This document shows, piece after piece, positions 9,358 through 45,756 of a DNA stretch of 64,000 nt. The translations under genes were made by a program, and so were the position numbers. Each line of letters opens with the position of its first letter. The stretch's first letter is position 1. This DNA comes from Candidatus Omnitrophota bacterium (GTDB taxonomy: Bacteria; Omnitrophota; Gorgyraeia; Gygaellales; Profunditerraquicolaceae). The stretch covers positions 234,048 through 298,047 of the forward strand of contig QZKH01000003.1 in NCBI GenBank assembly GCA_003598025.1. The letters are read 5' to 3'. The notes below the pieces were generated by a model, which searched no databases, was not told the DNA's origin, and was given only the letters and a program-made list of their open reading frames with translations.

Positions 9358-10290
9358 TTAGAATATTTTAATATAAGATTTTTTCTTAAGGTCGCTGATC
9401 CATTCCTCGATTTTCTCAGCCATCTTCTTCTCAAAAAGATAGGAATATATGCTGTCGCGAGAATCTTCAAGGCTTATCTTCTTTGGAGGGAAAAGATCAT
9501 AAAATAAAAAGATGTAATACGATTCGGCTATCTTAACCGGCCTGGAAAGGCCTCCTTTATTCAGTCTGGAAATCGCAGTTTCGACTTCGGGTTTTAATTC
9601 ACCTTCTTTAACCCATAAAAATTTGTTGATCCTTATGGAATATTCTTTTGAAAGATCCTCAAAACTCTTCCCATCTTTAGCCTCGCCGTAGATTTTATTA
9701 GCCAGCTCTTTGCCGCTTATAACTAGAGCCTTGAATTCTTTTTGAGCAGGCATATTAAAATCTTCCGGATTATTTTCATAAAACGAGGTTACCTCTGAAG
9801 GCCTTATAACTATTTTATCCTTTACCTTCCTTTCAATAATCGCCCTCATAAGCATCTGCTCCCTTATCCTTTTTTCTACATCTGCTAAGGTGAGCCCGCG
9901 CCGCATAAGGTCGCTATCTAAATCCCTGCTTGAACCATAGCGTCTTCTAATGTCGTCAATCCTGGACTTTACACGCATGTCATCGATAGTTATATTCTCG
10001 TTTTTGGCTTCCTGAAGTATAAGCCTGTCGTCAATCAGCTTATCCAAAAGATCGCCTTTTATAGATTCTATATGTTTCTCAGCCTCAAGTTCATTTTTAT
10101 CCTGGAAGTATTGCGCCTTCATAAAATTAACAAATTCACCCATATCCTTTTGTGTTATTGCCTCGTTATTCACTATTGCAACGATCTTGTCCTGGGCAAA
10201 TAGCAAGTTTGTATTCAACAAAAAAATAAAAGTTAAAATTCCGCACAAAAACTTAATTAGGTTTTTCATTCTCATATTTTCCCTGATCAA
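9358..10290 (-). CDS. SurA N-terminal-domain periplasmic chaperone-like protein (signal peptide, no clear PPIase domain)
   Basis: 310 aa. Has an N-terminal signal peptide (LIKFLCGILTFIFLLNTNLLFAQD) and a SurA_N-like helical region. Found next to pdxA/rsmA as in surA-pdxA-ksgA operons. Confidence 0.65.
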   Translation of the reverse strand: MIRENMRMKNLIKFLCGILTFIFLLNTNLLFAQDKIVAIVNNEAITQKDMGEFVNFMKAQYFQDKNELEAEKHIESIKGDLLDKLIDDRLILQEAKNENITIDDMRVKSRIDDIRRRYGSSRDLDSDLMRRGLTLADVEKRIREQMLMRAIIERKVKDKIVIRPSEVTSFYENNPEDFNMPAQKEFKALVISGKELANKIYGEAKDGKSFEDLSKEYSIRINKFLWVKEGELKPEVETAISRLNKGGLSRPVKIAESYYIFLFYDLFPPKKISLEDSRDSIYSYLFEKKMAEKIEEWISDLKKKSYIKIF

Positions 10291-18157: not shown

Positions 18158-18874
18158 CTATGAATACTTAGCAGCTTCAGGCAAGGTAAATTTAGCTTCA
18201 TAAAGTGCCTTACCAATAATTACGCCGCTTAAGCCATCCTTCTCCAGCATCTTGAGGCGCATTAAATCCTGTAAACAGGAAACCCCTCCGGAAGCGATAA
18301 TCCTAATCCTGTGTGTTTTTAATAGCTGCTTCAATTTCTTAATATTAGGCCCTTTGAGAGTCCCATCCATATTCACATCAGTAAAAATTATTTCTTTTAA
18401 TCCACTCTTTTTAAGGGATTTTAAAAGCTTATCAACGCTGACTCTTGCAGCGCCCTTTTTCCATCCTTTTATCAAAACAGAATCCTGCCTTGCATCAACG
18501 CTTACAATTACCCTGTCCTTATATTTTTTCAAAACTTTTTCAAGGAATTTTGCCTCGATGGCCCTTGTGCCTAAAACCACCCTGTAAATCCCGGCATCAA
18601 GAAGGCGTTTTATATCAGCCTGGGTCCTTATGCCACCGCCAAATTCAACAGGTATGCTTACTGCCCTGGCGATTTCTTGAACATATCTAAAATTTTGCAT
18701 TTTCCCTTTTATCGCTCCGTCTAAATCAACGAGATGCAAAAGCTTTGCTCCCTGCCTCTGCCAATGCTTAGCAGTCATCACAGGGTCTGATGAGTAGACC
18801 GTTTTACCGGTCTTACCCTGCACCAGGCGCACAACCTTACCCTGCATTATATCTATAGCGGGTATAATTAACAT
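18158..18874 (-). CDS. hisA: 1-(5-phosphoribosyl)-5-[(5-phosphoribosylamino)methylideneamino]imidazole-4-carboxamide isomerase
   Basis: MLIIPAIDIMQGKVVRLVQG...; HisA TIM barrel. The ATG at 18872-18874 was chosen; the ORF-track start at 18886 is a TTG. Confidence 0.9.
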   Translation of the reverse strand: MLIIPAIDIMQGKVVRLVQGKTGKTVYSSDPVMTAKHWQRQGAKLLHLVDLDGAIKGKMQNFRYVQEIARAVSIPVEFGGGIRTQADIKRLLDAGIYRVVLGTRAIEAKFLEKVLKKYKDRVIVSVDARQDSVLIKGWKKGAARVSVDKLLKSLKKSGLKEIIFTDVNMDGTLKGPNIKKLKQLLKTHRIRIIASGGVSCLQDLMRLKMLEKDGLSGVIIGKALYEAKFTLPEAAKYS

Positions 18875-24595: not shown

Positions 24596-25618
24596 CTAAA
24601 TCTTCTTCCTTAACTCTTTTTCGATTGTTTCCTGCAGTTTAGGATTTTCCTTAAGCAGTTTTATAGCTGCTTCTCTTCCCTGCCCGATTTTCTCTTCGCC
24701 ATAAGACAACCAGGCGCCGCTTTTGTTTACTATTTCGGCGCTGATCGCAGCATCAAGTATGCTGGCAGTCTTTGATATGCCCTCATTATGCATTATCTCA
24801 AACTCTGCTTCCCTGAAAGGCGCAGCGACCTTGTTTTTTACTACTCTAGCCCTTACCCGGTTGCCTATTACCAGGTCATCTGATTTCAAAGTGGCGATTT
24901 TTCTTAAATCTATCCTCACAGATGAATAAAACTTAAGCGCCCTGCCTCCGGGTGTGGTTTCAGGAGAACCGAACATAACCCCGATCTTCTCCCTTATCTG
25001 GTTTATAAAAACCATACATGTTCGTGATTTACTGATAGCGCCAGTCAATTTTCTTAAGGCCTGGGACATCAATCTTGCCTGTAAGCCTACATGCGAATCA
25101 CCCATTTCCCCCTCAATTTCAGCACGGGGAGTCAGCGCGGCGACAGAATCAATGATAACTAAATCAACGGCATTTGAACGCACAAGCGTCTCTGCAATTT
25201 CTAGAGCCTGCTCACCGGTATCCGGCTGAGAGATTAATAGATCATCCAGGTTAACACCAACGATTTTGGCGTAATTTGAATCAAAAGCATGCTCTGCATC
25301 AATAAATGCAGCTACTCCTCCTAACGATTGGATCTCTTTAATAAGCGACAACGTAAGAGTTGTCTTTCCGGAAGCTTCAGGGCCATATATCTCAATAACC
25401 CTTCCCCTAGGAAAACCGCCGACACCAAGGGCCAAATCAAGGGTTAATGCGCCTGTAGGGATAACTTCCACATTAACCTTTACATCTGAACCCAGTTTCA
25501 TTATGGAACCTTTACCGAATTGTTTTTCGATCTGCGATAAAGCCAATTCAAGTGCTTTTTGGCGGTTAGATAGGTCTTTTGCGGGATCCTTTTGCAAAAC
25601 TTTCTTATCTACAGTCAT
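24596..25618 (-). CDS. recA: recombinase RecA
   Basis: 340 aa with Walker [10 protein letters not shown] and a conserved L1/L2 region. Confidence 0.97.
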
Positions 25619-25677
25619 AATTCCTCCGATAGTTTATGGTTTGAGAGATAATTATATCTTACTTAATTTAGGCTGTC

Positions 25678-25848
25678 AATCAGTTAGTTCATAGTTCATG
25701 GTTCATAGTTGACAGATAACCTGGAATTCATCGGCCATAAAAACCATATAACTATGAACTGTGAACCATAAACCCTCCTTATCTATATGACGGATTAAAA
25801 ACCTAAATCTAACACATTAGTTCATTGTTCATGGTTGATGGTTGATGG
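25678..25848. repeat. arrays of tandem heptamers (TAGTTCA/TGGTTCA/TTGTTCA/TAGTTGA and complement TGAACTA) arranged as imperfect inverted arrays
   Basis: 25685-25712 holds 4 units on the + strand, 25750-25773 holds 3 units in inverted orientation, and 25818-25848 holds 4+ units. The recA-GGDEF divergent intergenic region is 458 bp. Confidence 0.85.
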
Positions 25849-26004
25849 ATAATATTATAAGCATATGGATTACATGGGTATCGCGTATATCGTGTTGAGT
25901 ATTGAGTATTATTCCTTCTTGCAGGCGAGTTAATAATTCACTGTTTAAGGCTCAAAGTTACTATTCTAATTATGTAAAACTTTGAACTATGAACTGGGTA
26001 CTTC

Positions 26005-26070
26005 TGTGTCCTTGTGACATTGTGTCTTTGTGGCTAGCTACTTTCTATGTTTCTATGAACTATGAACTAA
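26005..26070 (+). repeat. composite repeat (TGTGAC.TTGTGTC...TGTGTCTTTG..CTA.TACTTTCTATGTTTCTATG + 2 TGAACTA units), family 2; second copy at 42312-42406
   Basis: Aligns with 42312-42406 and partly with 31556-31594. Confidence 0.75.
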
Positions 26071-26112
26071 CTGACATTGACACTTATCTTAAAATATGCT
26101 ACATTTTCTTTC

Positions 26113-31519: not shown

Positions 31520-31594
31520 CAGTTCATGGTTGATAGTTCATTGTTCATAGACGTGGCTAATTTCTATGTACTACCAACCATGAACTATGAATTA
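31520..31594. repeat. heptamer arrays forming a 15-bp-arm inverted repeat (gttcatggttgatag ... ctaccaaccatgaac) directly 3' of etfA
   Basis: 31520-31547 holds 4 units in CAGTTCA/TGGTTGA/TAGTTCA/TTGTTCA form, and 31581-31594 holds units in TGAACTA/TGAATTA form. The etfA stop codon (31592-31594) lies in the last unit. Confidence 0.8.
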
Positions 31595-32815
31595 TTTCTT
31601 TAATATCTCTTTGAATTTTCTCGTTAGGGCAGGTACTACCTGGAAGACATCTCCGACGATACCATATGTTGCTACTTTAAATATAGGCGCGTCCGGGTCC
31701 TTATTGATGGCTATAATAATCTTTGAAGATTGCATCCCGACGAGGTGCTGGATCTGGCCTGATATGCCGCAGGCAAAGTAAATCTTAGGCGAGACAGTGC
31801 GCCCGGTTTGCCCCACCTGGTGAGAATAAGGCATCCATCCCGCATCAACTGCCGCCCGGGAAGCACCGACAGCTGCGCCGATAACATGGGCAAATTCTTC
31901 AAGCATTTTAAAATTCTCGGGTGCACCCATACCTCTGCCTCCTGAAACAATAATATCAGCTTCGGCTAAATTGACCAACGATTCTACTTCATCGACAATA
32001 TCCAGAAGTTTAGTCCTAGAACTAAACAGCGCTGGATCGACTTTCTCAATTATGATTTTGCCTTTCCTTGCTTTATTCGGAGCCATAGGTTGCATGACTT
32101 TATGCCTGACGGTAGCCATCTGCGGCCTGAAATTAGGAGAAATTATAGTTGCCATTATATTACCGCCAAATGCTGGTCTTGTTTGCAGCAGTATTTTTTT
32201 GTCTGGATCAATATCTAAACCTGTACAATCTGCAGTAAGCCCTGCCTTTATCCTTATCGCAACCCTGGATATAAGCGAACGGCCGATTGAAGTAGCGCCG
32301 CAGAGCACTATTTCTGGTTTATATTTTTGTATTAAATAGACTAAGATGTTGGTATAAGGCTCATCCTGGAAATTAGCTATTTCTGGCGCCTGTACCAGAT
32401 AAATGTTATCCGCACCATGCCAAATTAATTCGTCCAATTGATCATCTAAGCCGTTGCCGATTAATACTGCGCTTACATCCGTCCCCAACTTTTTTGACAA
32501 CTCATGTGCCTTACCTAAAAGTTCGTAAGATACCGACTGGATCTTTCCTTTCTTTTGTTCAATAAATACCCAAACTCCCTTGTAGTCCTTGATATCCGGC
32601 AGCTTGCAAACTGACTGGTCTTTATCAATCATTATCGCTTTGAATTTACAAGCTGATACACAGGCCCCGCACAAAGTACACTTATCCTCGTCAATTACAG
32701 CGATTTTTTTGCCTTTAGCATCTAATCTGTCCATCATGCGGATGGCATCAAAGGGGCATGTCTTAACGCATAATGTGCAACCGGTGCATTTTTCTACAAT
32801 AATCTTTATAGGCAT
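31592..32815 (-). CDS. etfA: electron transfer flavoprotein alpha subunit with N-terminal 2x[4Fe-4S] ferredoxin domain (FixB/CarE-like)
   Basis: 407 aa. Two CxxCxxCxxxCP motifs at the N-terminus (CTGCTLCVKTCP; CTLCGACVSACK), then EtfA FAD-binding domain motifs. Confidence 0.88.
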   Translation of the reverse strand: MPIKIIVEKCTGCTLCVKTCPFDAIRMMDRLDAKGKKIAVIDEDKCTLCGACVSACKFKAIMIDKDQSVCKLPDIKDYKGVWVFIEQKKGKIQSVSYELLGKAHELSKKLGTDVSAVLIGNGLDDQLDELIWHGADNIYLVQAPEIANFQDEPYTNILVYLIQKYKPEIVLCGATSIGRSLISRVAIRIKAGLTADCTGLDIDPDKKILLQTRPAFGGNIMATIISPNFRPQMATVRHKVMQPMAPNKARKGKIIIEKVDPALFSSRTKLLDIVDEVESLVNLAEADIIVSGGRGMGAPENFKMLEEFAHVIGAAVGASRAAVDAGWMPYSHQVGQTGRTVSPKIYFACGISGQIQHLVGMQSSKIIIAINKDPDAPIFKVATYGIVGDVFQVVPALTRKFKEILKK

Positions 32816-33597
32816 CAGTGGACCTCGTCCTTAATCAGCTTTACAAGTTCATCAACTATTTCCGGGATCTCGCCCTTCAAAATCTGCCCGCCAGTCCTGG
32901 GAGCAGGAGTAAATATCTTAACAACCTGTGTCGGGGAACCGCATAGACCGATTGACTGAGCATCAAGCGCCAGTTCCTTCTGACCCAGGGTAGCAATTTT
33001 AGCTTGCTTTGCCTTCATCATTCCCTTTAAAGAAGGCAGCCTTGGATTGTTTATTTCTTTTACTACTGTCAATAAAGCCGGTAAAGGAGTCTCAATGATC
33101 TCAAAGCCTTCCTCCATCATACGCTCTACTCTCATAGCTTTATCTTTGACCTCTTCTATTTTTTTAACATATGTTACCTGCGGAATATCTAAATGCGCCG
33201 ATATACCCGGCCCTACCTGGGCAGTATCACCGTCAGAAGCCTGTTTACCGCAGATTATAAGGTCGTAATCGCCTATTTTCTTTATTGCTGCAGCTAAAGT
33301 ATAACTGGTAGCCCATGTATCGCTTCCGGCAAAAGCCCTGTCACATATAAGTACACCGTCATCAGCACCCAAAGAAATAGACTCCCGCAAGACAGCTTCT
33401 GCCTGGGGCGGGCCCATCGTAATAACGGTTACTTTACCGCCAAACCTTTCTTTCAACCTGATCGCTTCTTCAATTGCATAAACATCAAAAGGGTTGATTA
33501 TGGACTTTACTCCCTCCCTAATCAAGGTGTTTGTTTCAGGGTTAATCCTGACTTCGGTAGTCTCTGGTACCTGTTTTATGCAAACGATTATATTCAT
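32815..33597 (-). CDS. etfB: electron transfer flavoprotein beta subunit (FixA-like)
   Basis: MNIIVCIKQVPETTEVRIN...; the ATG is at 33595-33597. The stop overlaps the etfA start as ATGA. Confidence 0.88.
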   Translation of the reverse strand: MNIIVCIKQVPETTEVRINPETNTLIREGVKSIINPFDVYAIEEAIRLKERFGGKVTVITMGPPQAEAVLRESISLGADDGVLICDRAFAGSDTWATSYTLAAAIKKIGDYDLIICGKQASDGDTAQVGPGISAHLDIPQVTYVKKIEEVKDKAMRVERMMEEGFEIIETPLPALLTVVKEINNPRLPSLKGMMKAKQAKIATLGQKELALDAQSIGLCGSPTQVVKIFTPAPRTGGQILKGEIPEIVDELVKLIKDEVH

Positions 33598-33611
33598 ACT
33601 TATTTTCCCTA

Positions 33612-33640
33612 TTACTGTGAACAATGAACTGTGAACTATT
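33612..33640. repeat. heptamer array (TGAACAA TGAACTG TGAACTA) between acyl-CoA dehydrogenase stop and etfB start
   Basis: 3 units. The acd stop codon TAG (33636-33638, minus strand) lies inside the last unit. Confidence 0.75.
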
Positions 33641-34787
33641 TAGCCATCTCTTTTATCAACTGCAATGCAATTATATTCCTCTGGATCTGGTTTGTGCCCT
33701 CATAAATCTGGGTAATTTTTGCATCACGTACATATTTTTCTATCGGGTATTCTTTCATATATCCGTAACCGCCAAAAACCTGCAATGCATCCACAGTCAC
33801 TTTCATCGCGACATCTGAAGCATACATTTTAGCCATAGCTGATGCCTTAGCAACATCCTTTACCCCGGCATCAACCATCCTGGCAGTAGAATATACCAAT
33901 GCCCTGGCAGCTTCGATCTCGGTTGCCATATCAGCAAGCATCCACTGTATACCCTGGAAGCTGGAAATTGATTTACCGAATTGGTGCCTCTCCTTAGCGT
34001 ATCTTACCGCCAGTTCAAGCGCGCCCTGTCCGATTCCCAGAGCCTGGGCAGCAACACCCGGTCTTGACATATCAAATGTCCTCATTGTAACGATAAAACC
34101 CATTCCTTCTTTGGCTATAAGGTTTTCCTTTGGCACTTTACAATCAGTAAATATCAGCTCCCTGGTTGAGGAAGCGCGGATGCCGAATTTATCTTCTTTT
34201 TTGCCGAAGGTAAACCCCTTCATACCTTTTTCAAGAATAAAAGCTGAAGCGCCTCTTGCGCCTTTAGTCTTATCCGTCATTGCTATAACTACGTAAGTTT
34301 CTGCATCGCCACCGTTTGTTATAAAGTGCTTTAAGCCGTTTAAGATATAATGGTCGCCTTCTTTTTTCGCTGTCGTCTTTATTGCAGAGGCATCTGAGCC
34401 TGCTTCCGGTTCGGTTACGGCAAAAGCTGCCACTTTCTTACCGCTGGCAAGATCAGGCAGGTATTTCTTTTTTTGCTCTTCACTACCGAATAAAACTATA
34501 GGAAAGGTACCTAAGGCAGAGGCAGCATAGCAGACAGCAATACCGCCGCAGGCACGCGAAAACTCCTCGGTAGCGAGGCAGAGGTTCAAAACCCCTACTG
34601 ACATACCGCCAAATTCTTCCGGGATGAATAACCCAAACAATCCTGCCTCCGCTATTACCTTTATGACCTCCCACGGATATTCTTCGCTTTCATCATATTT
34701 AGCAGCTACGGGCCTGATCTTCTCTTCAGCTATCTTATGCGCCAGGTCCTTGACCATTTTTTGTTCTTCAGTCAACAAATAATCCAT
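33636..34787 (-). CDS. acyl-CoA dehydrogenase (short/butyryl-chain type)
   Basis: 383 aa of ACAD fold with the catalytic Glu region ([12 protein letters not shown]) and FAD-binding motifs. Adjacent to etfBA. Confidence 0.9.
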
Positions 34788-34841
34788 AACTCCCTCCCTC
34801 AGTATTTTTAAAGATAATTATAATAACACAAAGAAAATCTA

Positions 34842-35291
34842 TTACAAGTTTTTTATTAGTGCGACCTCTTGGCAATCAGGAAATTTCGGGCAATTAATAC
34901 ATTCAGCCCAAACTTTATGCGGAAGATCTGCATGTTTTATCCTGCGGAAGCCGAACTTTTTAAAAAAATCCGGCTTATAGGTAAGCACAAATAATTTCTT
35001 TGCACCGAGGTCTTTTGCCTCCTCGATACAACTTGCCACCAGCTGTGTACCAATCCCTTTTGATTGGCTCTTTTTTTCAACAGCCAATGACCTAAGTTCA
35101 GCCAGATCCTGCCAGCAGATATGCAGGGCAGAACAACCGATGACCCTACCCCTTTCTTCGATGACAATAAAATCGCGCAGCCTGTCAAAAAGCTCATTTA
35201 AGGAACGCGGAAGCATAAGGTCTTCTTCGGCAAATTTATTTATCAAATTTTGGATTTTCGGTATATCGCTGACTTTGGCTTTACGGATCAT
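34842..35291 (-). CDS. GNAT family N-acetyltransferase (ArgA-like short form) with C-terminal Cys cluster
   Basis: 149 aa. Acetyl-CoA binding motif (LAVEKKSQSKGIGTQLV); C-terminus CINCPKFPDC. Confidence 0.7.
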   Translation of the reverse strand: MIRKAKVSDIPKIQNLINKFAEEDLMLPRSLNELFDRLRDFIVIEERGRVIGCSALHICWQDLAELRSLAVEKKSQSKGIGTQLVASCIEEAKDLGAKKLFVLTYKPDFFKKFGFRRIKHADLPHKVWAECINCPKFPDCQEVALIKNL

Positions 35292-36517
35292 ACTATATCT
35301 GTCCCTTTTGCAACCACGACTATCCCAGAATCAGTCACATGGAACCTTTTTCTGTCTTCAGCCTGGTCATATCCTATAACCATGCCCTGAGGTATGTTGA
35401 CATCCTTATCAATGATCGCCCTCTTTATTTTGGCGTATCTGCCGACATTTACACCTTCCATAAGGATTGAATCGTATACCTGAGAATAACTGTTTATCCT
35501 GACATTCGGAGACAAAATAGATCTCTGCACCCTGCCGCCGCTTATGATACAACCGACAGAAACCAATGAATCCAGCACTAAGCCGATTCTCCCCGTAATC
35601 TCCTCTCCGGCAAAAACATTTTTGGCAGGCGGGAACTGTTCCTGGTAAGTCCTCACCGGCCAGTCTTTATCATAGAGGTTAAACACCGGGTCAACCTGCA
35701 CTAGGTCAATATTGGCATCATAATATGCGTCTATTGTCCCTATATCCCTCCAATACAAAGCCTCTTTTTTATTTTCATCAGCAAAATTATATGCGCACAC
35801 CTTAAGGCCCTTTTTAAGCATTTGGGGGATAATATCTTTGCCAAAATCATGGGAGCTGGACGAACGCTTGCTATCCTCGCCCAATTCTTTTATAAGCACC
35901 CCGCTATTAAAAACATAAATACCCATTGAGGCATAAATTTTGTTTGGCTTTGACGGGATAGTTACTGGATTCTTGGGCTTTTCATGAAAAGCAGTCACCC
36001 TGTCTGAAGAATCAACTTCCAGGACACCGAATTGAATAGCCTCATCCTTATCTACCTCAACCACGCCCACAGTTACATCGGCATTTTTCTCGCGGTGAAG
36101 GTCTATCAGGGTGTAATAATTCATCTTATAGATATGGTCCCCGGCTAAAATCAAAACTTCATCGGGTTTTTCATCTTCAAGCGTGTATAAGTTCTGGTAT
36201 ATAGCATCTGCGGTTCCCAAATACCATGACTCTCCCACCCTTTTCTGCGCCGGCAGAATTTCAATATACTGTCCGAGTTCTGAAGGCAAAATATTCCAGC
36301 CTAACCGTATATGCCTCTGCAAAGAAGCTGACTTATACTGAGTCAAAAGGTATATCTTCCTTAACCCTGAATTAATGCAATTACTTAATGTAAAGTCTAT
36401 TATCCTGTAAATGCCGCCAAAAGGAACAGCAGGCTTTGCCCTGTCGCGGGTCAAAGGATAAAGCCTCTCGCCTTTTCCGCCAGCCATTATAAAAGTAATA
36501 ACCTTGCGCATCATCAC
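35288..36517 (-). CDS. glgC: glucose-1-phosphate adenylyltransferase
   Basis: 409 aa. Has FIMAGGKGERLYPLTRDRAKPAVPFGGIYRIIDFTLSNCINSG, the GlgC N-terminal signature, and a left-handed beta-helix C-terminus. The start is GTG or an adjacent ATG. Confidence 0.92.
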   Translation of the reverse strand: MMMRKVITFIMAGGKGERLYPLTRDRAKPAVPFGGIYRIIDFTLSNCINSGLRKIYLLTQYKSASLQRHIRLGWNILPSELGQYIEILPAQKRVGESWYLGTADAIYQNLYTLEDEKPDEVLILAGDHIYKMNYYTLIDLHREKNADVTVGVVEVDKDEAIQFGVLEVDSSDRVTAFHEKPKNPVTIPSKPNKIYASMGIYVFNSGVLIKELGEDSKRSSSSHDFGKDIIPQMLKKGLKVCAYNFADENKKEALYWRDIGTIDAYYDANIDLVQVDPVFNLYDKDWPVRTYQEQFPPAKNVFAGEEITGRIGLVLDSLVSVGCIISGGRVQRSILSPNVRINSYSQVYDSILMEGVNVGRYAKIKRAIIDKDVNIPQGMVIGYDQAEDRKRFHVTDSGIVVVAKGTDIV

Positions 36518-37113
36518 AAAAACACCCCCATAATTCCCCTTCTTATCATCATAACCCCGATAGCTGCTAACAGTATATACATAATTTTTGATACGGCTCT
36601 TACCCCGGTCTGGCCCATCACGTGCAATATATCCTCTGCGCGCGCCAAAACATACCAGACAATAAGCATATTTAAAATTATGGAAAGCAGGGTCAGCTTT
36701 ACCCCATAGATATCAATCATCATCAGGGCGGTAGTCAATACAGCCGGCCCGGTGATCAATGGCGTGCCGAGAGGAAAAATACCCAGAAACTTATCATTCT
36801 TGTCGAAATTTAAACTCTTCTTGGCGCCGGGAAGAAGCAGCCTTACGGAAATTATAAATATCAGGGCGCCGCCAGCAATCTGAAAATCCGGTATAGTTAT
36901 GCCTATTACCCCTAACAGGCCTTTGCCGATAAAAAGAAATAAAACAGCAATCAATGAAGCCGTGGTAACCGAATCAATGACTATCTTCCTTCTCTGCTTT
37001 TTAGCCTGGCCATCCACCAAAGCGATAAAAAGCGGAATAGTGCCAACGACATCGACTGCAACAAATATGGGAATAAAAACTGATATAAAATCTCTCAGCG
37101 TAATATTAAACAT
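36514..37113 (-). CDS. MarC family (UPF0056) integral membrane protein
   Basis: 199 aa with 6 predicted TMs and MarC-like sequence. Confidence 0.7.
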   Translation of the reverse strand: MFNITLRDFISVFIPIFVAVDVVGTIPLFIALVDGQAKKQRRKIVIDSVTTASLIAVLFLFIGKGLLGVIGITIPDFQIAGGALIFIISVRLLLPGAKKSLNFDKNDKFLGIFPLGTPLITGPAVLTTALMMIDIYGVKLTLLSIILNMLIVWYVLARAEDILHVMGQTGVRAVSKIMYILLAAIGVMMIRRGIMGVFL

Positions 37114-37188
37114 GATTAAATATTATAGCCCATTGAGGCTAAAAAACAAGAAAAAATGAATCATTATATCTTTTTAGCGCAACAAGCG

Positions 37189-38712
37189 TCACTTCCCGAT
37201 TCTTTTCCTCAGCTCGAACCTGTAACTCCATCTGGATTTAGAAATAGGTACCCCAAAAATATTGTTTTGGATACCTATAAACGTGCTCTTAGAAACATTA
37301 TAATTATACTTGAGATGGCTTTTATAATAAGTATATAACGACATGACGCCCACCATTGGCTCAGAAGGGCTTCCGCTGCCATTCCCGGAAAAAACTAAAT
37401 AATCATATATATCAATCCTGTAAGGATGCAGTGAAAAAGTCAGATCATAAGTAGTGTAATCACCTGCCAGCATATACCATAACTCCGGGGCTACCATTAC
37501 ACTGGAGCCGGAAGGGATACTATTTCTTAATATCCGTCTGTTATAATCGTAAGTATCTGCCTTTGTCCAGGTGGCGGGGAGAAGTATGTTCATCCTTATA
37601 AAAGGCAGGCAACCGATAAAAATAAATAAAAGTATAACCCTGATGAATTCTTTTTTAGTGGCGATTTCTTTGTTTGTCAAAAATACGACGGTAGAAATAA
37701 AAAATATTAAGAACGCCTGCGTATACATATGCCTGAGGGTAAAGACAAAAATCAGGATTAGGATAGATATTATCAAGCCTAAGAAAATCGGCAGGTTAAC
37801 TGTGTCTTTATGTTTATTCTTCCGGCTCGTTAAAGACCTGACAGCAATGTAGAAAAGAAATACACTCAACGGCAGGTAAAATAATGTGTCTGCATAACGG
37901 ACATGGGTAATAACCGAATAAGATACTGCCCTGACAAAATCGTCGCTTATAAAAAATAATGCATAACTTAGAGCCTGGCTTAAAATAAGCTTATAATCAA
38001 ACCCGGAAGCTGCAAGCCATGCGAAAAGAGTTAAGAATAATCCGATTAAAATGCTAGCAATTAGCTTGATGAAGCTTTTAATACTATTCCGGCAATAGCC
38101 TAAGAATATACTTGCCGCAAAAAAAATGATTAATAACCCAAGCCAAAAAGAAGTTGCAAGACATAAAAAGGACGACAGTAAAATAAAAATGCTATTCCTG
38201 AAAGAATTAATTTCTTTATATTTAATTGCAAAGTAAACCAATGCCAGCCCAAAAAATACAGCCAGGGTATCAGGTCGCGAAATTCCCTTGATCGCCAAGA
38301 TCCATGAAAAAAATATCAATCCTAATATATATACCGGAGGTTCGTCATCAGCGAAGATTTTAAAAAGTTTATACTGCGCATAGGCAACAAAAAGGCATAT
38401 CAAGAGCGATAATGCTAAACTGGAAGATATTGAAAAACCGAAAATCATAAACCATACTCCATAAATAAACGCATACACGGGAGGATACCACACCGAACAA
38501 TTTTCGACTCCCGGCCTGTAGCCAAAAACCCCCGGAGACGCAAAAGTATGATTTAAGGCAAAATTCCTTGCCGGCTCTTTAAAGATCATTTCGTCTGTAG
38601 AAGGAAAAGGCAGCTTAAATATGTAAAGGTAGAAGCTGATTAAAAACAATAGCAGCCAAAAGATTATTACCCGGTTCTTATGCAACATATTTTTAAGTTC
38701 TGGCAATTGCAT
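37189..38712 (-). CDS. polytopic membrane protein, putative GT-C-fold glycosyltransferase (PMT_2/ArnT-like)
   Basis: 507 aa with more than 10 predicted TMs, a DE motif in the first loop (STDEMIFKEPARN) and an aromatic-rich C-terminal soluble segment. The assignment is tentative. Confidence 0.45.
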   Translation of the reverse strand: MQLPELKNMLHKNRVIIFWLLLFLISFYLYIFKLPFPSTDEMIFKEPARNFALNHTFASPGVFGYRPGVENCSVWYPPVYAFIYGVWFMIFGFSISSSLALSLLICLFVAYAQYKLFKIFADDEPPVYILGLIFFSWILAIKGISRPDTLAVFFGLALVYFAIKYKEINSFRNSIFILLSSFLCLATSFWLGLLIIFFAASIFLGYCRNSIKSFIKLIASILIGLFLTLFAWLAASGFDYKLILSQALSYALFFISDDFVRAVSYSVITHVRYADTLFYLPLSVFLFYIAVRSLTSRKNKHKDTVNLPIFLGLIISILILIFVFTLRHMYTQAFLIFFISTVVFLTNKEIATKKEFIRVILLFIFIGCLPFIRMNILLPATWTKADTYDYNRRILRNSIPSGSSVMVAPELWYMLAGDYTTYDLTFSLHPYRIDIYDYLVFSGNGSGSPSEPMVGVMSLYTYYKSHLKYNYNVSKSTFIGIQNNIFGVPISKSRWSYRFELRKRIGK

Positions 38713-38713
38713 T

Positions 38714-39931
38714 CTATATTTTCTTGATTAATAAGAGGCAGCTAAAACTGGCTAATGAAGATATAACTATAAGCCATTTAAGCCCGATTAACGGAAGCAA
38801 GAAAGCCCCCGAAAGGTTGCTGGCGGTAAGGGCGACATTGCTAAAACTACACAATAATGCAAAGGATGTTGCTTCATAACCTTTTAAAGAGTTTCGCGCC
38901 ATAAAATCCATTACCATTAGAAATATAAACATGCCGATAAATCCGTAAAAAATGTTATATATGACTGCTGTTACGGGTGTATAGTAAAGATAACTTAATG
39001 TTACGGCCCCTCCAAGAAAAACTGACCAATAAAGCCACTTCTTAACATTTATCCGCTGGCTGAACTTATAATATAATACCGCACCCATAATTTCAAAAAT
39101 AGTGCTTATCGTGCTTAAGGCGCCAATCCAAACCTTGCCCCAGCCGAAGCTGTCTCTTTGGATAAAGAATAGCGGCGTACCAAAAGAAGGTGAAAATCTA
39201 TACAAAAAAATAAACAATCCGACAACCAGTATTTTCTTATTAGTTAATACCGGCTTAAGGCTTGCAATTATTGGCAGCCTATTCCGGCCTGGATCTCTAA
39301 CCAGGTCTTCTTTAAAATAGAAAGCAGCTAAACCTACCAATAAATAAAAAGGTATAAGCGATAAAAACCCTATTCTGAATCCCCATTTTTCGGCAATGAT
39401 CCCACCCAATATCCCGGTGAGTAACCCGGATATAGAAATAGATATCCATTGGACGCTCTGTATCTTGCCGGTTATATTATAAGCCTTCCCCTCAACGCAC
39501 ATAACACCGTCGACACAAACGTCCCTGAAGGCGGCATTTGTAGAATTCAGCAAAAGGACGAAAACCAGCATAAAAACAGGTAAAGCTACAAGTCCTACAA
39601 CCATAACAGTTGCCAGGCTCATAAGTAAAGCAAAAAATATCAGTGATCTTTTAGTGAAGAAATTATCTACGACATAGCCAATTAACGGTTTCAGCAACCA
39701 TGCAGAACTGATTATGCTGCCTAAAACCATTATTTTGGAAGGTGAAAAATATAATGACTCTTTAAGGTAATAAAAAAGGCTCTGGGAAGGAAGGGATTCT
39801 ATGCCCTGCACAAAATAAACAGAACTGCTTAATGCGTATATCCAGAATAATTTCTTATTCAAGTTATTTAACGCTGGTATCCTGTTCTTGTTCTTGGGCA
39901 ACTTGGTTAAATGCGCCCTGCTTATCGGCAT
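38714..39931 (-). CDS. MFS-type transporter, folate-biopterin transporter (BT1)-like
   Basis: 405 aa with about 12 TMs and BT1-like N-terminal motifs (SLPSQSLFYYLKESLYF...KPLIGYVVDN). The start overlaps the secG 3' end by 68 nt, so the true start may be downstream. Confidence 0.55.
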   Translation of the reverse strand: MPISRAHLTKLPKNKNRIPALNNLNKKLFWIYALSSSVYFVQGIESLPSQSLFYYLKESLYFSPSKIMVLGSIISSAWLLKPLIGYVVDNFFTKRSLIFFALLMSLATVMVVGLVALPVFMLVFVLLLNSTNAAFRDVCVDGVMCVEGKAYNITGKIQSVQWISISISGLLTGILGGIIAEKWGFRIGFLSLIPFYLLVGLAAFYFKEDLVRDPGRNRLPIIASLKPVLTNKKILVVGLFIFLYRFSPSFGTPLFFIQRDSFGWGKVWIGALSTISTIFEIMGAVLYYKFSQRINVKKWLYWSVFLGGAVTLSYLYYTPVTAVIYNIFYGFIGMFIFLMVMDFMARNSLKGYEATSFALLCSFSNVALTASNLSGAFLLPLIGLKWLIVISSLASFSCLLLIKKI

Positions 39932-40220
39932 CTAGAGGCTGCTTTTGGGCCTCCTGCTTTTCCGTTGCGGGAACCGTATTACTCATTAAAGATTTATTCC
40001 GGTTAGCTGCAAAAAGCGCCAGGCTCAGGCAAGTAATAAAAAACAACACTGATAAAATAGTAGTGACCCGTGTGAGTACTGCCGGGGTCTTCGTCCCGAA
40101 CATTGACTCAACATCAGAAAAGGTATCAACCAAACCTCCACCCCTGCCCCTCTGCACGAGTATTATTATTATTAAAAGTATGCACACGATTACATGTAAT
40201 GCTATTATTAAACCGGTCAT
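39864..40220 (-). CDS. secG: preprotein translocase subunit SecG
   Basis: 118 aa. SecG N-terminal TM with GGG motif (LVQRGRGGGLVDTF) and a Q/E-rich tail. Sits in the conserved tpiA-secG position. Confidence 0.8.
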   Translation of the reverse strand: MTGLIIALHVIVCILLIIIILVQRGRGGGLVDTFSDVESMFGTKTPAVLTRVTTILSVLFFITCLSLALFAANRNKSLMSNTVPATEKQEAQKQPLDADKQGAFNQVAQEQEQDTSVK

Positions 40221-40990
40221 TTTAATACCTCACTTGCTTTTTTTATTATCGAGATAAAGGATTCTATAGAAAGGCTTGCGCCTCCGACTAAGGCACCGTC
40301 GACATCAGGTTTAAGTAGAATCTCGCTTATATTTTCCGGCTTGACGCTGCCTCCATATTGTATTCTAACCTCAGAAGCTACCTCTTCGCTATAAATATCT
40401 TTTATTAAGTCTCTTATATACTTATGGGCCTCCTGGGCCTGTTCAGCAGTAGCAGTTTTACCGGTACCGATAGCCCATACCGGTTCATAAGCTATAATAA
40501 TACCTGCCATCTTATCTGCGCTGATCCCAGAAACCCCATTCGTGATATGGTCATTCAATACCTTAAAAGTCTGACCGCCATCGCGCTCTTTAAGGGTCTC
40601 GCCTACACAAACAATCGGGATTAAACCATGATTAAGCGCAGCTATTATCTTTTTATTTACCGTTAAATTGGTCTCCGCAAAAAACTGCCTTCTTTCAGAA
40701 TGCCCTATTATAACATATTTGCAACCGGCATCTTTAAGCATAACAGGTGATATCTCTCCGGTAAAAGCACCCTGGTCTTCCCAATAAAGATTTTGCGCCC
40801 CTAATTCTATGGGAGAATCGACAATAATTTCTGCTACTTCCGCCAGACTGGTAAATACAGGGCAAATAACTACATCCGTATTCAGGTTTTTTACAGAGAA
40901 TAACTCTCTCTTTAATCCGCTGGCAAGCTCAATTGACTGCCCGATAGTTTTGTTCATTTTCCAGTTTCCAGCAATAATAATTTTTCTCAT
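40217..40990 (-). CDS. tpiA: triose-phosphate isomerase
   Basis: 257 aa with TIM motifs (IIAGNWKMN, VIGHSERR, AYEPVWAIGTG). Confidence 0.95.
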   Translation of the reverse strand: MRKIIIAGNWKMNKTIGQSIELASGLKRELFSVKNLNTDVVICPVFTSLAEVAEIIVDSPIELGAQNLYWEDQGAFTGEISPVMLKDAGCKYVIIGHSERRQFFAETNLTVNKKIIAALNHGLIPIVCVGETLKERDGGQTFKVLNDHITNGVSGISADKMAGIIIAYEPVWAIGTGKTATAEQAQEAHKYIRDLIKDIYSEEVASEVRIQYGGSVKPENISEILLKPDVDGALVGGASLSIESFISIIKKASEVLK

Positions 40991-41004
40991 CTTGATTTCC
41001 TTGT

Positions 41005-42186
41005 TTATTTATCTGCCAATGCAGCTATTCCGGGTAAAGTTTTTCCCTCCAGATACTCAAGACTTGCCCCGCCTCCTGTTGAAATATGGGACATTTTATC
41101 TTCCAGGTTAAATTTAGCTATGGCTGCAGCCGTGTCCCCTCCTCCGATTATGCTGACAGTATCAAGACCGGCAATAAATTCTGCGACATTTTTTGTTCCT
41201 TTACTGAAAGGCTCCATCTCAAATATACCTAAGGGGCCGTTCCAGACAATAGTTTTCGAAGATTTCAACTGGCTATTAAACAATTCCACTGTCTTTGGAC
41301 CGATATCTACTGCGATCATTCCCTCAGGTATCGACTCACCGACTACCTCAGGCTTGCTAGTTTCATCAATTTTAGCGACTACAATATGGTCAACAGGCAA
41401 TAGTATTTTTTTATTTGCTTCCTTTGCTTTTTCAAGTATAGCTTTAGCGATATCTATTTTGTCCTTCTCAAGCTTAGAATTACCGATCTGAATGCCTTTT
41501 GCCTTAAGAAAGGTATAGCTCATCCCGCCGCCTATGAGTATAATATCGCATTTCGGCAGCAGGTTGTCGATAACCCCTATCTTATCTGAAACTTTTGCTC
41601 CTCCTAAAATAACGGCAAAAGGTTTAGCCGGATTTGCGACTGCTGCGCCAAGGTATTTAATCTCCTTTTCTATTAAAAAACCGGCAACTGACTTTAAATA
41701 ATGCGTAACTCCTTCAGTCGATGCGTGAGCGCGGTGTGCCGTGCCGAAAGCATCATTGACAAACAAATCAGCTGATGATGCCAGTTTCTTTGCAAACTCC
41801 GGGTCATTTCCTTCTTCTTCCTCGTGAAACCGGAGGTTTTCCAATAAGATGACCTTTTCATTTGAGGATTTTATTTTAGACTCTACTTCAGGACCGACGC
41901 AATCATCAAGCATTAATACATTCTGACCAAGCAATTCCTTCAAGCGTAAAGAAACAGGCTTGAGGCTGTATTTAGCGATAACTTTGCCATCCGGACGGCC
42001 TAAGTGGCTCATAAGGATGAGTTTCTTGGCTTTATTAGCTATTATATAATTAATAGTCTCAAGAGTGGCCTTGATCCTGGTATCATCAGTTATCTTAAGA
42101 TCGCTATCTAGCGGGACATTAAAATCAGCCCGCATAAGCACAACCTTGCCATTCAAATCAATGTCTTTAATTGACATTTTATTCAT
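41005..42186 (-). CDS. pgk: phosphoglycerate kinase
   Basis: 393 aa with PGK motifs (RADFNVP, GGGMSYTFL, GGGDT). Confidence 0.95.
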   Translation of the reverse strand: MNKMSIKDIDLNGKVVLMRADFNVPLDSDLKITDDTRIKATLETINYIIANKAKKLILMSHLGRPDGKVIAKYSLKPVSLRLKELLGQNVLMLDDCVGPEVESKIKSSNEKVILLENLRFHEEEEGNDPEFAKKLASSADLFVNDAFGTAHRAHASTEGVTHYLKSVAGFLIEKEIKYLGAAVANPAKPFAVILGGAKVSDKIGVIDNLLPKCDIILIGGGMSYTFLKAKGIQIGNSKLEKDKIDIAKAILEKAKEANKKILLPVDHIVVAKIDETSKPEVVGESIPEGMIAVDIGPKTVELFNSQLKSSKTIVWNGPLGIFEMEPFSKGTKNVAEFIAGLDTVSIIGGGDTAAAIAKFNLEDKMSHISTGGGASLEYLEGKTLPGIAALADK

Positions 42187-42311
42187 GAATTTCCTCCTAT
42201 TTAAATGCTTTAATATATATCAATTTAGTTGGTTTGTCAAAGGTTTTCCCTTTACTGTCAGGATGGTTGGTTTATAATTCGTATAGGTATAGAGTATTGC
42301 GTTATTGCAAT

Positions 42312-42406
42312 ATGTGACTTTGTGTCGTGTGTCTTTGCGACTGAATACTTTATCTATTTCTATGAACTATCAACTATGAACCATAAACTATGAACTATGA
42401 ACTAAA
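42312..42406 (+). repeat. family-2 composite repeat plus 6-unit TGAACTA heptamer array
   Basis: tgtgactttgtgtcgtgtgtctttgcgactgaatactttatctatttctatg, followed by TGAACTA TCAACTA TGAACCA TAAACTA TGAACTA TGAACTA (42363-42404). The stop codon of the upstream minus-strand gene (42395-42397) lies inside the array. Confidence 0.8.
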
Positions 42407-44656
42407 ATCCACTTTCTGTCCTATTGGTAAACTTGCGATGAGAAGGCTTGAAAGCTTAAAGAATAGCAAAAATACCAGGCTGTTTATAAGTCCGATTACA
42501 GGAAAAAAGAATATCCCGGCCAAAACCCCCGAAAGACAGCTTCCCAACAGATCTGCGGCATAAAGCAATCCGGCATTGGCAGCTTTGAAGCTGACATTAT
42601 TATTAATCAGCGAATTGGCCAAAACAAATTGAAAACCGACACAAAAACCGGGCAAAGCAAATAAGAATACAAAAAGTATATAATTATTAACAAAGATGAT
42701 ATTTTTATCAAATAAAACTATCAAAGATGAGATTATTGAAATAATCAGCAATTCACCAGATATAAACAGTTTACTAAGCAGTTTTCTTTCCGTTTTAAAT
42801 CTGCCGGCAACCAGGCTTCCCACAGCAGCTCCGGACATAAATATGCTGATAAGAAAACCTATTCTCTGGTAAAGGTAACCGAAATATACCTGAAAAGCAA
42901 ACGAAAGCATAAGCATAACCATCATCCCGAAAAACCCAGTAACAGCAACTGGATAAAAAATCTGGATATCGTTTTTCAGGTAATTTTTTAAACGCAAAAC
43001 CAATATAAAAACAGTGGCAATGATAACAAGAATCAACAACGCCGTTAAATTTATACTCTTTACCTTTTCAAAGATATATTTCATTCCGGATGAATATTTA
43101 TTACTCCATAAACGCATGCTTTCATAAACTGCGACCGGCCTGAGGTCAGTGTTAACTTCTTTTGTTGCATTCTTCAACTGAGCACTAAACCATTCCTGCC
43201 GAGCGGCATCCAATCTGTAATTAAGATAACCTGCATTCAGAAAATCAGTAGTAATCCCCATTTGTTTCATTCTGTTCTCAATTACTTTCGGGTTGAAATT
43301 ATATTTGATAAAGCGCGAATCTGTGCCTATGTATAAATTATAATCTCCGGGAATAACGGAAGTATACGCAAAAACATCTTTGAGGCCGTTAAATATGCAG
43401 GCATTCATATCTTTAAGCTCATTGCCCATATAAGTACTTGACCCTAAAAGGCTAAATACAATTAATCCGCCCCTATTTAATTTCGTTTTTACTAAAGCAA
43501 AAAACTCTTTAGTCAGAAGCCTGTTTGCCGACAAATCAACCGGGCCGCTGACACCAAGAAAAATAATATCAAATTTATCAACTGCCCGTAACAAAAAGAG
43601 CCTTCCATCAATATTACTCAGCCATAATCTTTTATCTGAGAGTTCAAGCAGGCTAAGTTCATCAGGATGCTTCTTGACCATTTCAATCAGTAAAGGATCA
43701 AGCTCGGCATAATCGACTCTATCTACAGGGTATTTAAATATTTCCGATATCACTCCCCCTATCCCGCCGCCGATCACAAGTATCCGCTTAGGGTTATCAC
43801 TTAATAACAAGGGAAAATTTACAAAATCTTCAATTAAATTAGTATCGGGATGCGGCAATATTACTGCCGGAAGGCCATTATAATAAAATACCGTCTGCTT
43901 ATTATCCTTGGTTACTGCGACATTGCCGTATACAGAATTTCTGTTTTCAACCGCCCCCTCCCTGCCAAATCTTATTTTAAGCGAAGACTTTTCCAAATCA
44001 GCCGGCCGGTTAAAAATTATTGTAAATATAAATACTGCGAATATGGAAATAAGTAGAAATTTAGCCCTGCCTGCAGAAAAACTTTTAAGAAAAACAAAGC
44101 CGACGATCGCGCTAGCTAAGGCAACCAAGTAAGCAATCTGAAATGATGAATAATGGGTTACCAGGGCATAAGTAAAAACAAAACCTCCGATTATAGTGCC
44201 CAGCGTTTCTAAGGCATAAATATTTGCGACCGGACTTGCCTTCTTGTCATTTTTTGAAGAGAATAGTGAACAGGCACAGCTGAATAAAGCGCCATGGCTG
44301 GAAGCTATAAGCAGATTCGCCATGAACGATAACAATAGCACTTGCCCTATTCCCAGCGCCTCATAGGGTTTAAGATCAAAAAGAAATTTAAATGTCCTGG
44401 AAAAATATAATGCTGCAGGCAGGCTGGCTGAAAAAATAAGGTTAAGCACAACAAAATATAACCTGGATTTATCCTTGTTACGCCTAAGCAACAGAGAAAA
44501 AATGTAGGCGCCTAAAGATTCAAGGAAAATCCAGCTGGATAATATGGCCCCGATAACAAGCTCATTACCATATGCGCTAAAAGATATCTCCCTCAATAGA
44601 AGGACCTGCGCGATTATGCCGCTTGCTCCCACTAGAACCAGAAAGAATATATTCAT
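42395..44656 (-). CDS. membrane-embedded spermidine-synthase-like (aminopropyltransferase-fold) fusion protein
   Basis: 753 aa. About 7 N-terminal TMs, then a central SpeE-like Rossmann domain (ILVIGGGIGGVISEI...DRVDYAELDP...DIIFLGVSGP), then about 7 C-terminal TMs. Inserted between gap and pgk. Confidence 0.65.
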   Translation of the reverse strand: MNIFFLVLVGASGIIAQVLLLREISFSAYGNELVIGAILSSWIFLESLGAYIFSLLLRRNKDKSRLYFVVLNLIFSASLPAALYFSRTFKFLFDLKPYEALGIGQVLLLSFMANLLIASSHGALFSCACSLFSSKNDKKASPVANIYALETLGTIIGGFVFTYALVTHYSSFQIAYLVALASAIVGFVFLKSFSAGRAKFLLISIFAVFIFTIIFNRPADLEKSSLKIRFGREGAVENRNSVYGNVAVTKDNKQTVFYYNGLPAVILPHPDTNLIEDFVNFPLLLSDNPKRILVIGGGIGGVISEIFKYPVDRVDYAELDPLLIEMVKKHPDELSLLELSDKRLWLSNIDGRLFLLRAVDKFDIIFLGVSGPVDLSANRLLTKEFFALVKTKLNRGGLIVFSLLGSSTYMGNELKDMNACIFNGLKDVFAYTSVIPGDYNLYIGTDSRFIKYNFNPKVIENRMKQMGITTDFLNAGYLNYRLDAARQEWFSAQLKNATKEVNTDLRPVAVYESMRLWSNKYSSGMKYIFEKVKSINLTALLILVIIATVFILVLRLKNYLKNDIQIFYPVAVTGFFGMMVMLMLSFAFQVYFGYLYQRIGFLISIFMSGAAVGSLVAGRFKTERKLLSKLFISGELLIISIISSLIVLFDKNIIFVNNYILFVFLFALPGFCVGFQFVLANSLINNNVSFKAANAGLLYAADLLGSCLSGVLAGIFFFPVIGLINSLVFLLFFKLSSLLIASLPIGQKVDFSS

Positions 44657-44661
44657 TTTAT

Positions 44662-44703
44662 AAAAAATGGGGGGCTTACTCTGTTTCCGTAACGTAAGCC
44701 CCC
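44662..44703 (-). terminator. rho-independent terminator-like hairpin after gap (10-bp GC-rich stem + T5)
   Basis: Minus strand: GGGGGCTTAC-loop-GTAAGCCCCC followed by ATTTTTAT. It leads directly into the ATG of the downstream gene. Confidence 0.5.
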
Positions 44704-44721
44704 GTTAAGAGATCTATACTA

Positions 44722-45756
<1,035 letters not shown>

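Follow-up and report, generated by a model that had tools for sequence, protein, structure and literature searches.

In a 64,000-nucleotide stretch of a Candidatus Omnitrophota genome (NCBI GenBank assembly GCA_003598025.1, contig QZKH01000003.1, positions 234,048 to 298,047; hereafter the window), tandem arrays of a seven-nucleotide unit, read as TAGTTCA on one strand and TGAACTA on the other, probably form the arms of one family of insertion elements, which are small, palindromic and non-coding. The arrays lie in the spacer between recA and a divergent GAF-GGDEF gene, directly 3' of etfA, between acd and etfB, and 3' of a spermidine-synthase-like (SpeE-like) gene. An initial annotation of the window had listed several possible roles for them, among these the insertion-site preference of a small mobile sequence. 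This is the role we favour, since the arrays are absent at the corresponding junctions of relatives, the elements have a shared interior, and the same palindromic design flanks cargo genes elsewhere.

Cyanobacteria have been known to carry dispersed heptamer repeats since 1990, and giant sulfur bacteria and Bacteroidetes since 2015; to our knowledge these repeats have no accepted origin or function. The window arrays are related to several known kinds of sequence: these bacterial heptamer repeats (the short tandemly repeated repetitive sequences, or STRR, of cyanobacteria and the TAACTGA repeats), the intervening sequences (IVS) of ribosomal RNA (rRNA), and transposable elements of the miniature inverted-repeat type (MITEs).

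Heptamer arrays and their repeat unit

Arrays were located with Tandem Repeats Finder (TRF) and a register scan, at a tolerance of two mismatches per unit. The TGAACTA/TAGTTCA arrays are a genuine, non-random feature of the window and not an artefact: it contains six arrays of at least three units, against none in each of 100 dinucleotide-preserving shuffles; period-7 arrays are its dominant tandem repeats by TRF; and all arrays fall in four intergenic gaps, though 93% of the window is coding. Those first reported at 31520-31594, 33612-33640 and 42363-42404 were all recovered (Table 1). Head-to-tail units of 7 nt, in at least three copies and at four dispersed non-coding loci within 64 kb, identify them as heptanucleotide tandem repeats of the STRR kind.

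The 32 units in nine arrays give the consensus YRGTTSA, of which TAGTTCA is the most typical form. GTT at positions 3-5 is present in 31-32 of the 32 units and the final A (position 7) in 30, with variation concentrated at positions 1, 2 and 6. Because the unit holds TAG on one strand and TGA on the other, three consensus units stop every frame on both strands; an array can thus persist only in sequence outside genes, apart from rare in-frame cases whose stops have mutated. The sequence TTTCTATG had been described as consistently preceding arrays in the TGAACTA orientation. It does so at 26056, 31564 and 42363 and is missing at 25748, 25983 and 33618, an association that thus extends to three of six arrays. 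Four of its six copies in the window abut arrays; it is largely lineage-specific, with one recurrence in a gene-bearing cassette from Pirellulales.

Palindromic layout and shared interior of the elements

The elements share the layout [TAGTTCA array]-loop-[TGAACTA array], with TAG ends facing outward on both sides, the acd-etfB array being a solo arm. Two elements occupy the recA-GGDEF spacer. Element 1 abuts the recA -35 box; its left arm reads TCAGT TAGTTCA TAGTTCA TGGTTCA TAGTTGA, and its inverted repeat comprises 24-nt arms that are 83% complementary and 39 nt apart. The right arm of element 2 stops 2 nt short of the -35 box of the GGDEF gene, and the last 20 nt of this arm are a perfect inverted copy (100% complementary) of 25680-25699 in element 1. 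The interior of element 2 contains TTGAGTA x2.3 at 25895-25910, the short array 25983-25996 and two copies of TTTCTATG at 26042-26057. At the outermost ends of the recA-spacer block, TAACTGA (26068-26074) and TCAGTTA (25680-25686) occur as single copies; this is the heptamer of Beggiatoaceae, possibly by coincidence.

A 51-nt non-repeat segment beside the right arm of element 2 (26005-26055, plus strand) is common to the SpeE-side element (42313-42362), with a local alignment score that none of 500 shuffles reached. Octamer-like tandem repeats of TGTGNCNT, in about four copies, lie within the shared segment at about 26005-26037 and 42313-42342, and its last 14 nt, GCTAnTTTCTATGT, occur also in the etfA element. 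As joint alignment of the four elements in MAFFT was uninformative, sharing of interiors was judged from local alignments of pairs, scored against shuffles. The shared non-repeat interior speaks for copies of one element and against independent slippage at each site.

Directly 3' of etfA, the inverted repeat previously noted is indeed present; the arms quoted as 15 bp pair at 14 of 15 positions, and the repeat extends to 21-nt arms at 90% complementarity. Folding of this inverted pair, which had been suggested as a check, gave a hairpin of ~21 bp (-28.7 kcal/mol, z = -5.2). The SpeE-side left arm, at about 42264-42286, is tentative, being strongly degenerate and drawn from the fold only (z about -1.8, not significant). 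Single arrays displayed no structure beyond that of shuffles, and the acd-etfB array was less structured than 196 of 200. On the mRNA strand this solo arm reads AAA TAG TTCA CAGTTCA TTGTTCA CAGTAAT AGGGAAAATAAGT, followed by the etfB ATG; the likely etfB start is ATG at 33597-33595, giving the conserved N-terminus MNIIVC.

At all three gene 3' ends the stop codon lies, as first proposed, inside a repeat unit. The etfA TAA (31592-31594) belongs to a degenerate unit, TGAATTA (TAATTCA on the gene strand), the outermost of the right arm; the acd TAG (33636-33638) is the first TAG of the mRNA-strand array; and the TAG of the SpeE-like gene (42395-42397) is in the second unit, the open reading frame (ORF) having read through one unit before it. 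Since all three overlaps are on the TAG side of the arrays, they are instances of a general polar rule seen in other phyla, described below. Acd and EtfA terminate at the residue where their counterparts in relatives do, and the arrays therefore begin exactly at the ancestral stop codon; taken together, the starting points of the elements coincide exactly with such a stop codon or with the edge of a -35 box. Only ~40% identical, homologues of the SpeE-like protein have variable C-terminal tails, and the array may have replaced a few residues there. The proposed placement of array sites at operon boundaries did not hold for one of them, as the acd-etfB array sits inside the acd-etfB-etfA operon.

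Presence and absence at orthologous junctions

Four syntenic Omnitrophota contigs were gathered through RecA homologues, and a further relative (L235) was used for the SpeE-pgk junction. A metagenome RecA scan returned mostly distant RecAs (62-68% identity), with only contig L128 useful.

Between recA and the GGDEF gene, the two -35 boxes are 397 nt apart in the window, compared with 70-76 nt in L121 and L126. The same promoter arrangement in relatives marks the recA promoter-like site as ancestral. Upstream of recA in five Omnitrophota lies a core comprising GTTAGATT, CGTC and A(A/G)GGAGG followed by a T-rich run; in the window it stands between elements 1 and 2 and is part of neither. Candidates for its role are an SOS-type operator, a small RNA or leader, and a terminator belonging to the gene upstream; the L124 copy makes a clear hairpin with a T run. 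On the other side of the spacer, the GGDEF -10 box TACATT (26100-26105) is 7 nt before the ATG at 26113, with the same spacing in relatives, and the GGDEF mRNA is probably leaderless; the TTG start listed for this gene at 26077 coincides with its -35 box.

At the acd-etfB junction, L121 has AAATAATG, L128 has AAATAAAAGATG, and the window has a 40-nt insert; L126 carries a different heptamer array there, of the TAAGTAC type. The SpeE-pgk junction of L235 contained no array. Orthologous sites thus differ in presence and absence, as do those of MITEs, with L121, L128 and L235 lacking arrays at the acd-etfB, recA-spacer and SpeE-pgk sites. Absence at the same junctions, with neighbouring proteins and promoters intact, identifies the arrays as insertions.

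One insertion of this kind has entered a gene. In hisF of L126 (17780-18595), an inverted heptamer-array insertion of ~54 nt lies in frame at 18177-18238, contributing 18 extra residues in a loop and adding SVHSSKFMVDNDKPRTKNQEQT where the window has RSSDGK. Coming and going at constrained junctions, together with entry into hisF, is the behaviour of mobile DNA and not of conserved regulators.

Two junctions that hold heptamer elements in the window (3' of etfA) or in L124 (hisB-hisH) carry unrelated GC-rich palindromic repeats in other Omnitrophota: GGGACACCC/GGGTGTCCC 3' of etfA in L121 (4499-4620) and AGGGACGGTTCTCAA/TTGAGAACCGTCCCT between hisB and hisH in L128 (15955-16040). Several repeat families thus seem to find such junctions permissive, or to prefer them, as places to land.

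The same heptamer in other phyla

An exact 17-mer scan, with one genome per species, placed at least 120 loci among the matches listed, and the counts in this section refer to these listed loci. They derive from Bacteroidota (Prevotella, Saprospiraceae, Chitinophagales), Cyanobacteria, Planctomycetota, Acidobacteriota, Bacillota and another member of Omnitrophota, and the same arrays occur in the cultured isolates Neolewinella lacunae KCTC 42187, Pedobacter albus KR3-3 and Pollutibacter soli JS81. An array of at least four units was present at 107 of 120 loci, and 133 of 137 arrays were intergenic.

Stop codons were associated with the arrays in a strongly polar manner. For long upstream ORFs that enter on the TAG side, the stop fell inside the array in 34 of 88 cases, 16 of these at its first TAG, and no more than 6 nt away in a further 13, for a total of 47 of 88; on the TGA side it fell inside in seven of 81 and within 6 nt in four more, for a total of 11 of 81 (Fisher p = 5e-8). 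As both sides stop ORFs equally, ORFs merely running into stops cannot explain this asymmetry. Inverted pairs were predominantly TAG-outward (15, against four TAG-inward; p = 0.02).

Cassettes bearing an Avd-like gene

Arrays of this design flank an inserted gene at seven independent sites, spanning Omnitrophota, Planctomycetota and Bacteroidota (Table 1). In the Omnitrophota contig L124, inverted TAGTAAC arrays surround a 124-aa gene between hisB and hisH, whose product is a four-helix-bundle protein of TIGR02436 (PF05635, Avd-like "23S rRNA IVS protein"), a kind of small gene that first became known from rRNA inserts. A profile built from this gene retrieved four more such genes in the listed array loci, three of them exactly between TAG-outward TAGTTCA arrays, on contigs from Pirellulales, Bacteroidales and Saprospiraceae. 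Close homologues in public assemblies are located between two epimerase genes, between ilvB and ilvN, and between gatA and gatB, each flanked by inverted xxGTAAC arrays; in these cassettes the upstream stop is in or at the first unit and the downstream ATG is 2-10 nt past the last. The larger related elements carry only the TIGR02436 Avd-like gene, with no transposase.

The L124 junction reads GAT TA/GTAAC...GTTAC TA/AC ATG where relatives have GAT TAA ... ATG, a sequence arrangement that fits insertion into the TA of a TAA stop. Between two arrays at L079 (7454-7637), the loop codes for the L072 protein in an internally deleted form of 62 aa (E = 3e-16), which provides a route from cassette to short hairpin.

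The window and its genes

The RecA encoded in the window is identical to RJP28923.1, from a metagenome-assembled genome of Candidatus Omnitrophota. The G+C content of the window is 40.4%. Greedy ORF calling, from which the coding fraction was taken, yielded 58 genes, and co-orientation is extreme over the entire 64 kb, 55 of the 58 lying on the minus strand. Besides the genes listed in Table 1, those near arrays include genes for SMC, a response regulator and an HTH_17 protein, as well as gap, pgk, tpi and secG. At 40217-45741 the gene for the 753-aa SpeE-like protein splits the usual gap-pgk-tpi-secG cluster between gap and pgk; the order SpeE-like then pgk-tpi-secG is found also in the relative L235, and pgk has its own strong promoter-like site (42212-42240). 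Searched with Rfam at the gathering score, the whole window returned two tRNAs only and no rRNA; the repeat regions, searched at gathering and permissive thresholds, returned nothing above chance.

Table 1. Coordinates of arrays, elements, genes and comparison sites. Positions are those of the window unless a locus label (L) is given.
Feature	Position	Strand	Description
Array 3' of etfA, left	31521-31550		AGTTCAT x4.3
Array 3' of etfA, right	31564-31594		Orientation reverse to the 31521-31550 array
acd-etfB array	33614-33638		3 units
SpeE-side array	42360-42404		6.4 units
recA-GGDEF spacer, five arrays	25685-25712, 25748-25772, 25818-25848, 25983-25996, 26056-26069
Palindromic element 1, recA-GGDEF spacer	25680-25773		Left arm 25680-25712, loop 25713-25747, right arm 25748-25773
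Palindromic element 2, recA-GGDEF spacer	25818-26074		Left arm 25818-25848, 207-nt non-coding interior, right arm 26056-26074
etfA-side palindromic element	31520-31594		Directly 3' of etfA; left arm 31520-31550, loop about 31551-31563, right arm 31564-31594
acd-etfB solo array with short non-repeat tail	33598-33638	minus	Between acd and etfB
SpeE-side element	42264-42404		Right arm 42363-42404 (6 units), TTTCTATG at 42357-42364, shared interior 42313-42362
recA	24596-25618	minus	Divergent from GAF-GGDEF gene
etfA	31592-32815	minus	Last gene of acd-etfB-etfA operon
acd	33636-34787	minus	First gene of acd-etfB-etfA operon
SpeE-like gene	42395-44656	minus	753 aa; fused major facilitator superfamily (MFS)/spermidine-synthase-like
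recA promoter-like site	25651-25679	minus	TTGACA-17-TATAAT, 12/12; outer boundary of element 1
GGDEF-gene promoter-like site	26077-26105	plus	TTGACA-17-TACATT, TG before -10; outer boundary of element 2
Ancestral spacer core	25774-25817	minus	GTTAGATT...CGTC...AGGAGG; between elements 1 and 2
Spacer core in relatives	L121 9867-9934; L126 9843-9918; L128 about 9862-9922; L124 about 9812-9870
Seven cassette sites	L124 17589-18045; L208 2470-2950; L215 2480-2912; L225 1715-2166; L028 5797-6247; L072 4750-5241; L083 5772-6226

Alternative explanations

An unlikely alternative, though the likeliest of those considered, is that the arrays are cis-regulatory sites for a single-stranded RNA- or DNA-binding protein (for example cold-shock or S1-like), which would bind one protomer per heptamer and tune the adjacent genes at the level of translation or transcription. 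Such recognition would account for the near-invariance of GTT and the final A beside variable positions 1, 2 and 6, for the same 20 nt directly upstream of both the recA and GGDEF -35 boxes, and for an acd-etfB array that is unstructured RNA 20 nt upstream of the etfB start; precedents exist in the TAACTGA repeats (PMC4679880) and in heptamer repeats of Nostoc (bioRxiv 10.1101/2022.06.06.494920). Factor binding, one of the roles first suggested, retains the near-invariant core in its favour and is weakened by the comparative evidence: the arrays are not conserved at the junctions of relatives, where acd-etfB has a different heptamer in one and none in two; among the listed loci, orientation relative to co-directional genes is balanced (33 vs 29), and neither orientation is enriched near downstream start codons; a copy resides in frame within hisF of a relative; and arrays flank an inserted cargo gene in seven places.

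It is less likely still that each array arose by independent, microsatellite-like slippage at its own site and was kept from genes only by its stop codons, with neither mobility nor function. Genomes carrying TGAACTA arrays are in fact rich in other heptamer arrays, which are diverse (271 period-7 arrays in 872 kb of the listed loci, against 16 in 789 kb of unselected control loci), copy numbers vary between loci, and heptamers are an over-represented repeat length in some bacteria (PMC4679880). Slippage cannot make the same heptamer from different local sequences, and here the same unit occurs at four unrelated loci together with a shared non-repeat interior; nor would it produce the consistently inverted, TAG-outward arrangement, the polar association with stop codons or the in-frame palindromic insertion in hisF.

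That the arrays are transcription terminators or Rho-loading sites at operon ends, a termination role having also been put forward at the outset, is very improbable: three arrays do start at stop codons, the etfA pair is a strong hairpin, and TAGTTCA-sense RNA would be unstructured with one UC dinucleotide per unit, but none of the three regions scanned contains a GC-rich stem with a T run, single arrays do not fold, one array is inside an operon between acd and etfB, and the copies in the recA spacer are upstream of both promoters.

The interpretation as arms of insertion elements has its own difficulties. No mobility enzyme, transposase or other, was found among the genes annotated in the 64-kb window, and six-frame hmmsearch and tblastn detected no Avd-like gene or remnant in the window loops, so that in this organism the TAGTTCA elements are linked to an Avd-like cassette by architecture only. 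The acd-etfB array has no partner arm and the left arm of the SpeE-side element is weak. Arms within an element show no excess pairing, their complementarity being 0.89, compared with 0.88 between loci (p = 0.16). A TA duplication in the stop is compatible with the hisB-hisH junction of L124 and with acd-etfB in the window, but the unit itself begins with TA. Beyond decaying units, arrays of different phyla have no common flank motif. Finally, the conserved core of the unit, with the identical 20 nt beside both -35 boxes, could point to sequence-specific recognition. Weighing these, we still consider the arms of small palindromic insertion elements the probable identity of the arrays.

Relation to known systems

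The 23S rRNA IVS of Coxiella is a stem-loop with terminal inverted repeats, an S23p ORF and tandem heptameric repeats that differ in number among strains, and RNase III cuts it at the first repeat (PMC4990558). Homology links the family PF05635 to Avd, a protein of diversity-generating retroelements (PMC10053308). Like the IVS of Coxiella and Leptospira, the elements described here have an inverted-repeat stem around a loop in which an Avd-like four-helix-bundle gene is optional, and the same gene family lies between inverted heptamer arrays in related loci. Unlike them, the window elements are situated between protein genes or upstream of promoters and not in an rRNA helix; the window copies have no ORF, whereas seven related insertion sites have an S23p/PF05635 ORF; and the heptamer is TAGTTCA or xxGTAAC and not GACAGAT.

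In Beggiatoaceae, Cyanobacteria and Bacteroidetes, the TAACTGA repeats lie between genes, at times overlapping the stop of the upstream gene, and have been proposed to act post-transcriptionally (MacGregor 2015, PMC4679880); in Nostoc, reporter expression is affected by the heptamer repeats that lie upstream of recF and recO (bioRxiv 10.1101/2022.06.06.494920). The window arrays resemble these and the cyanobacterial STRR as dispersed intergenic tandem heptamers in sets of two to six or more, with stops in all forward frames, some sets overlapping an upstream stop, and a patchy spread over the same phyla. They differ from the TAACTGA repeats in that no rotation of TGAACTA/TAGTTCA equals TAACTGA, in having no preference for positions just upstream of starts, and in having stops on both strands and arrays that are mostly inverted pairs.

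MITEs such as Correia/nemis, the enterobacterial repetitive intergenic consensus (ERIC) and the repeat units of pneumococcus (RUP) offer another likeness, as small non-coding sequences with terminal inverted repeats that lie near genes, form hairpins in mRNA and are variably present at orthologous sites; an internal-deletion derivative of a larger element also exists (L079). The terminal repeats here differ in being made of tandem heptamers, and the larger relative carries an Avd-like gene and not a transposase. With the Rickettsia palindromic elements (RPE) there is in common a palindromic repeat in frame in a housekeeping protein (HisF of L126), although this case is confined to that relative and is not in the window, and there is no sequence relationship. 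Repetitive extragenic palindromes (REP) and their bacterial interspersed mosaic elements (BIME), with the REP-associated tyrosine transposase (RAYT), likewise group short palindromic units of alternating orientation into mosaic clusters, placed at the 3' ends of genes and between cistrons; they are GC-rich imperfect palindromes of 20-40 nt with a GTAG head, in contrast to the AT-rich heptamer arrays of the window, where no RAYT gene was seen.

We found no description of S23p genes flanked by heptamer arrays between cistrons, or of heptamer repeats in Omnitrophota, in a literature survey of incomplete coverage.

A possible origin and its significance

Best read as cargo-less palindromes of a MITE-like or IVS-like kind, the elements of the window may be derivatives, or parasites, of Avd-like cassettes, in the way that MITEs relate to insertion sequences. 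Their insertion may target the TA of a stop codon, and copy number within an arm would drift by slippage. At the 3' end of etfA, where both arms would be transcribed, the ~21-bp stem may serve as an RNase III substrate or as a hairpin protecting the 3' end; either processing or protection would make insertion nearly harmless to the operon. The RNA processing suggested in the initial annotation is thus plausible for paired arrays only, by analogy with the RNase III excision of rRNA intervening sequences (PMC4990558). In our view the elements are passengers, selfish or neutral, that may have side effects on mRNA ends; we do not take them for dedicated regulators.

More tentatively, we raise the possibility that stop-bearing inverted heptamer arrays define a so far unrecognised class of IVS-like selfish cassettes that cross phyla and carry an Avd-like gene, the window arrays being their cargo-less offspring. 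A full form bearing S23p/TIGR02436 would insert precisely at a stop codon between cistrons; its stem, either cut out by RNase III or keeping translational coupling intact, would render the insertion harmless; and recognition of the heptamer arrays would fall to the Avd-like pentamer, perhaps together with a reverse transcriptase acting in trans.

This analysis places heptamer repeats in Omnitrophota, assigns them a consistent anatomy of inverted TAG-outward arrays with outer ends on stop codons, and ties that anatomy to orphan Avd-like "23S rRNA IVS protein" genes inside conserved operons. IVS-like cassettes, if real, would tie together three puzzles: the heptamer repeats of bacteria, the intervening sequences of rRNA and the abundance of orphan Avd-like genes. 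Should the link hold, it would supply a testable model of how insertions between tightly coupled genes are borne by compact genomes, together with a candidate nucleic-acid partner for a protein family that is very large and whose function is unknown.

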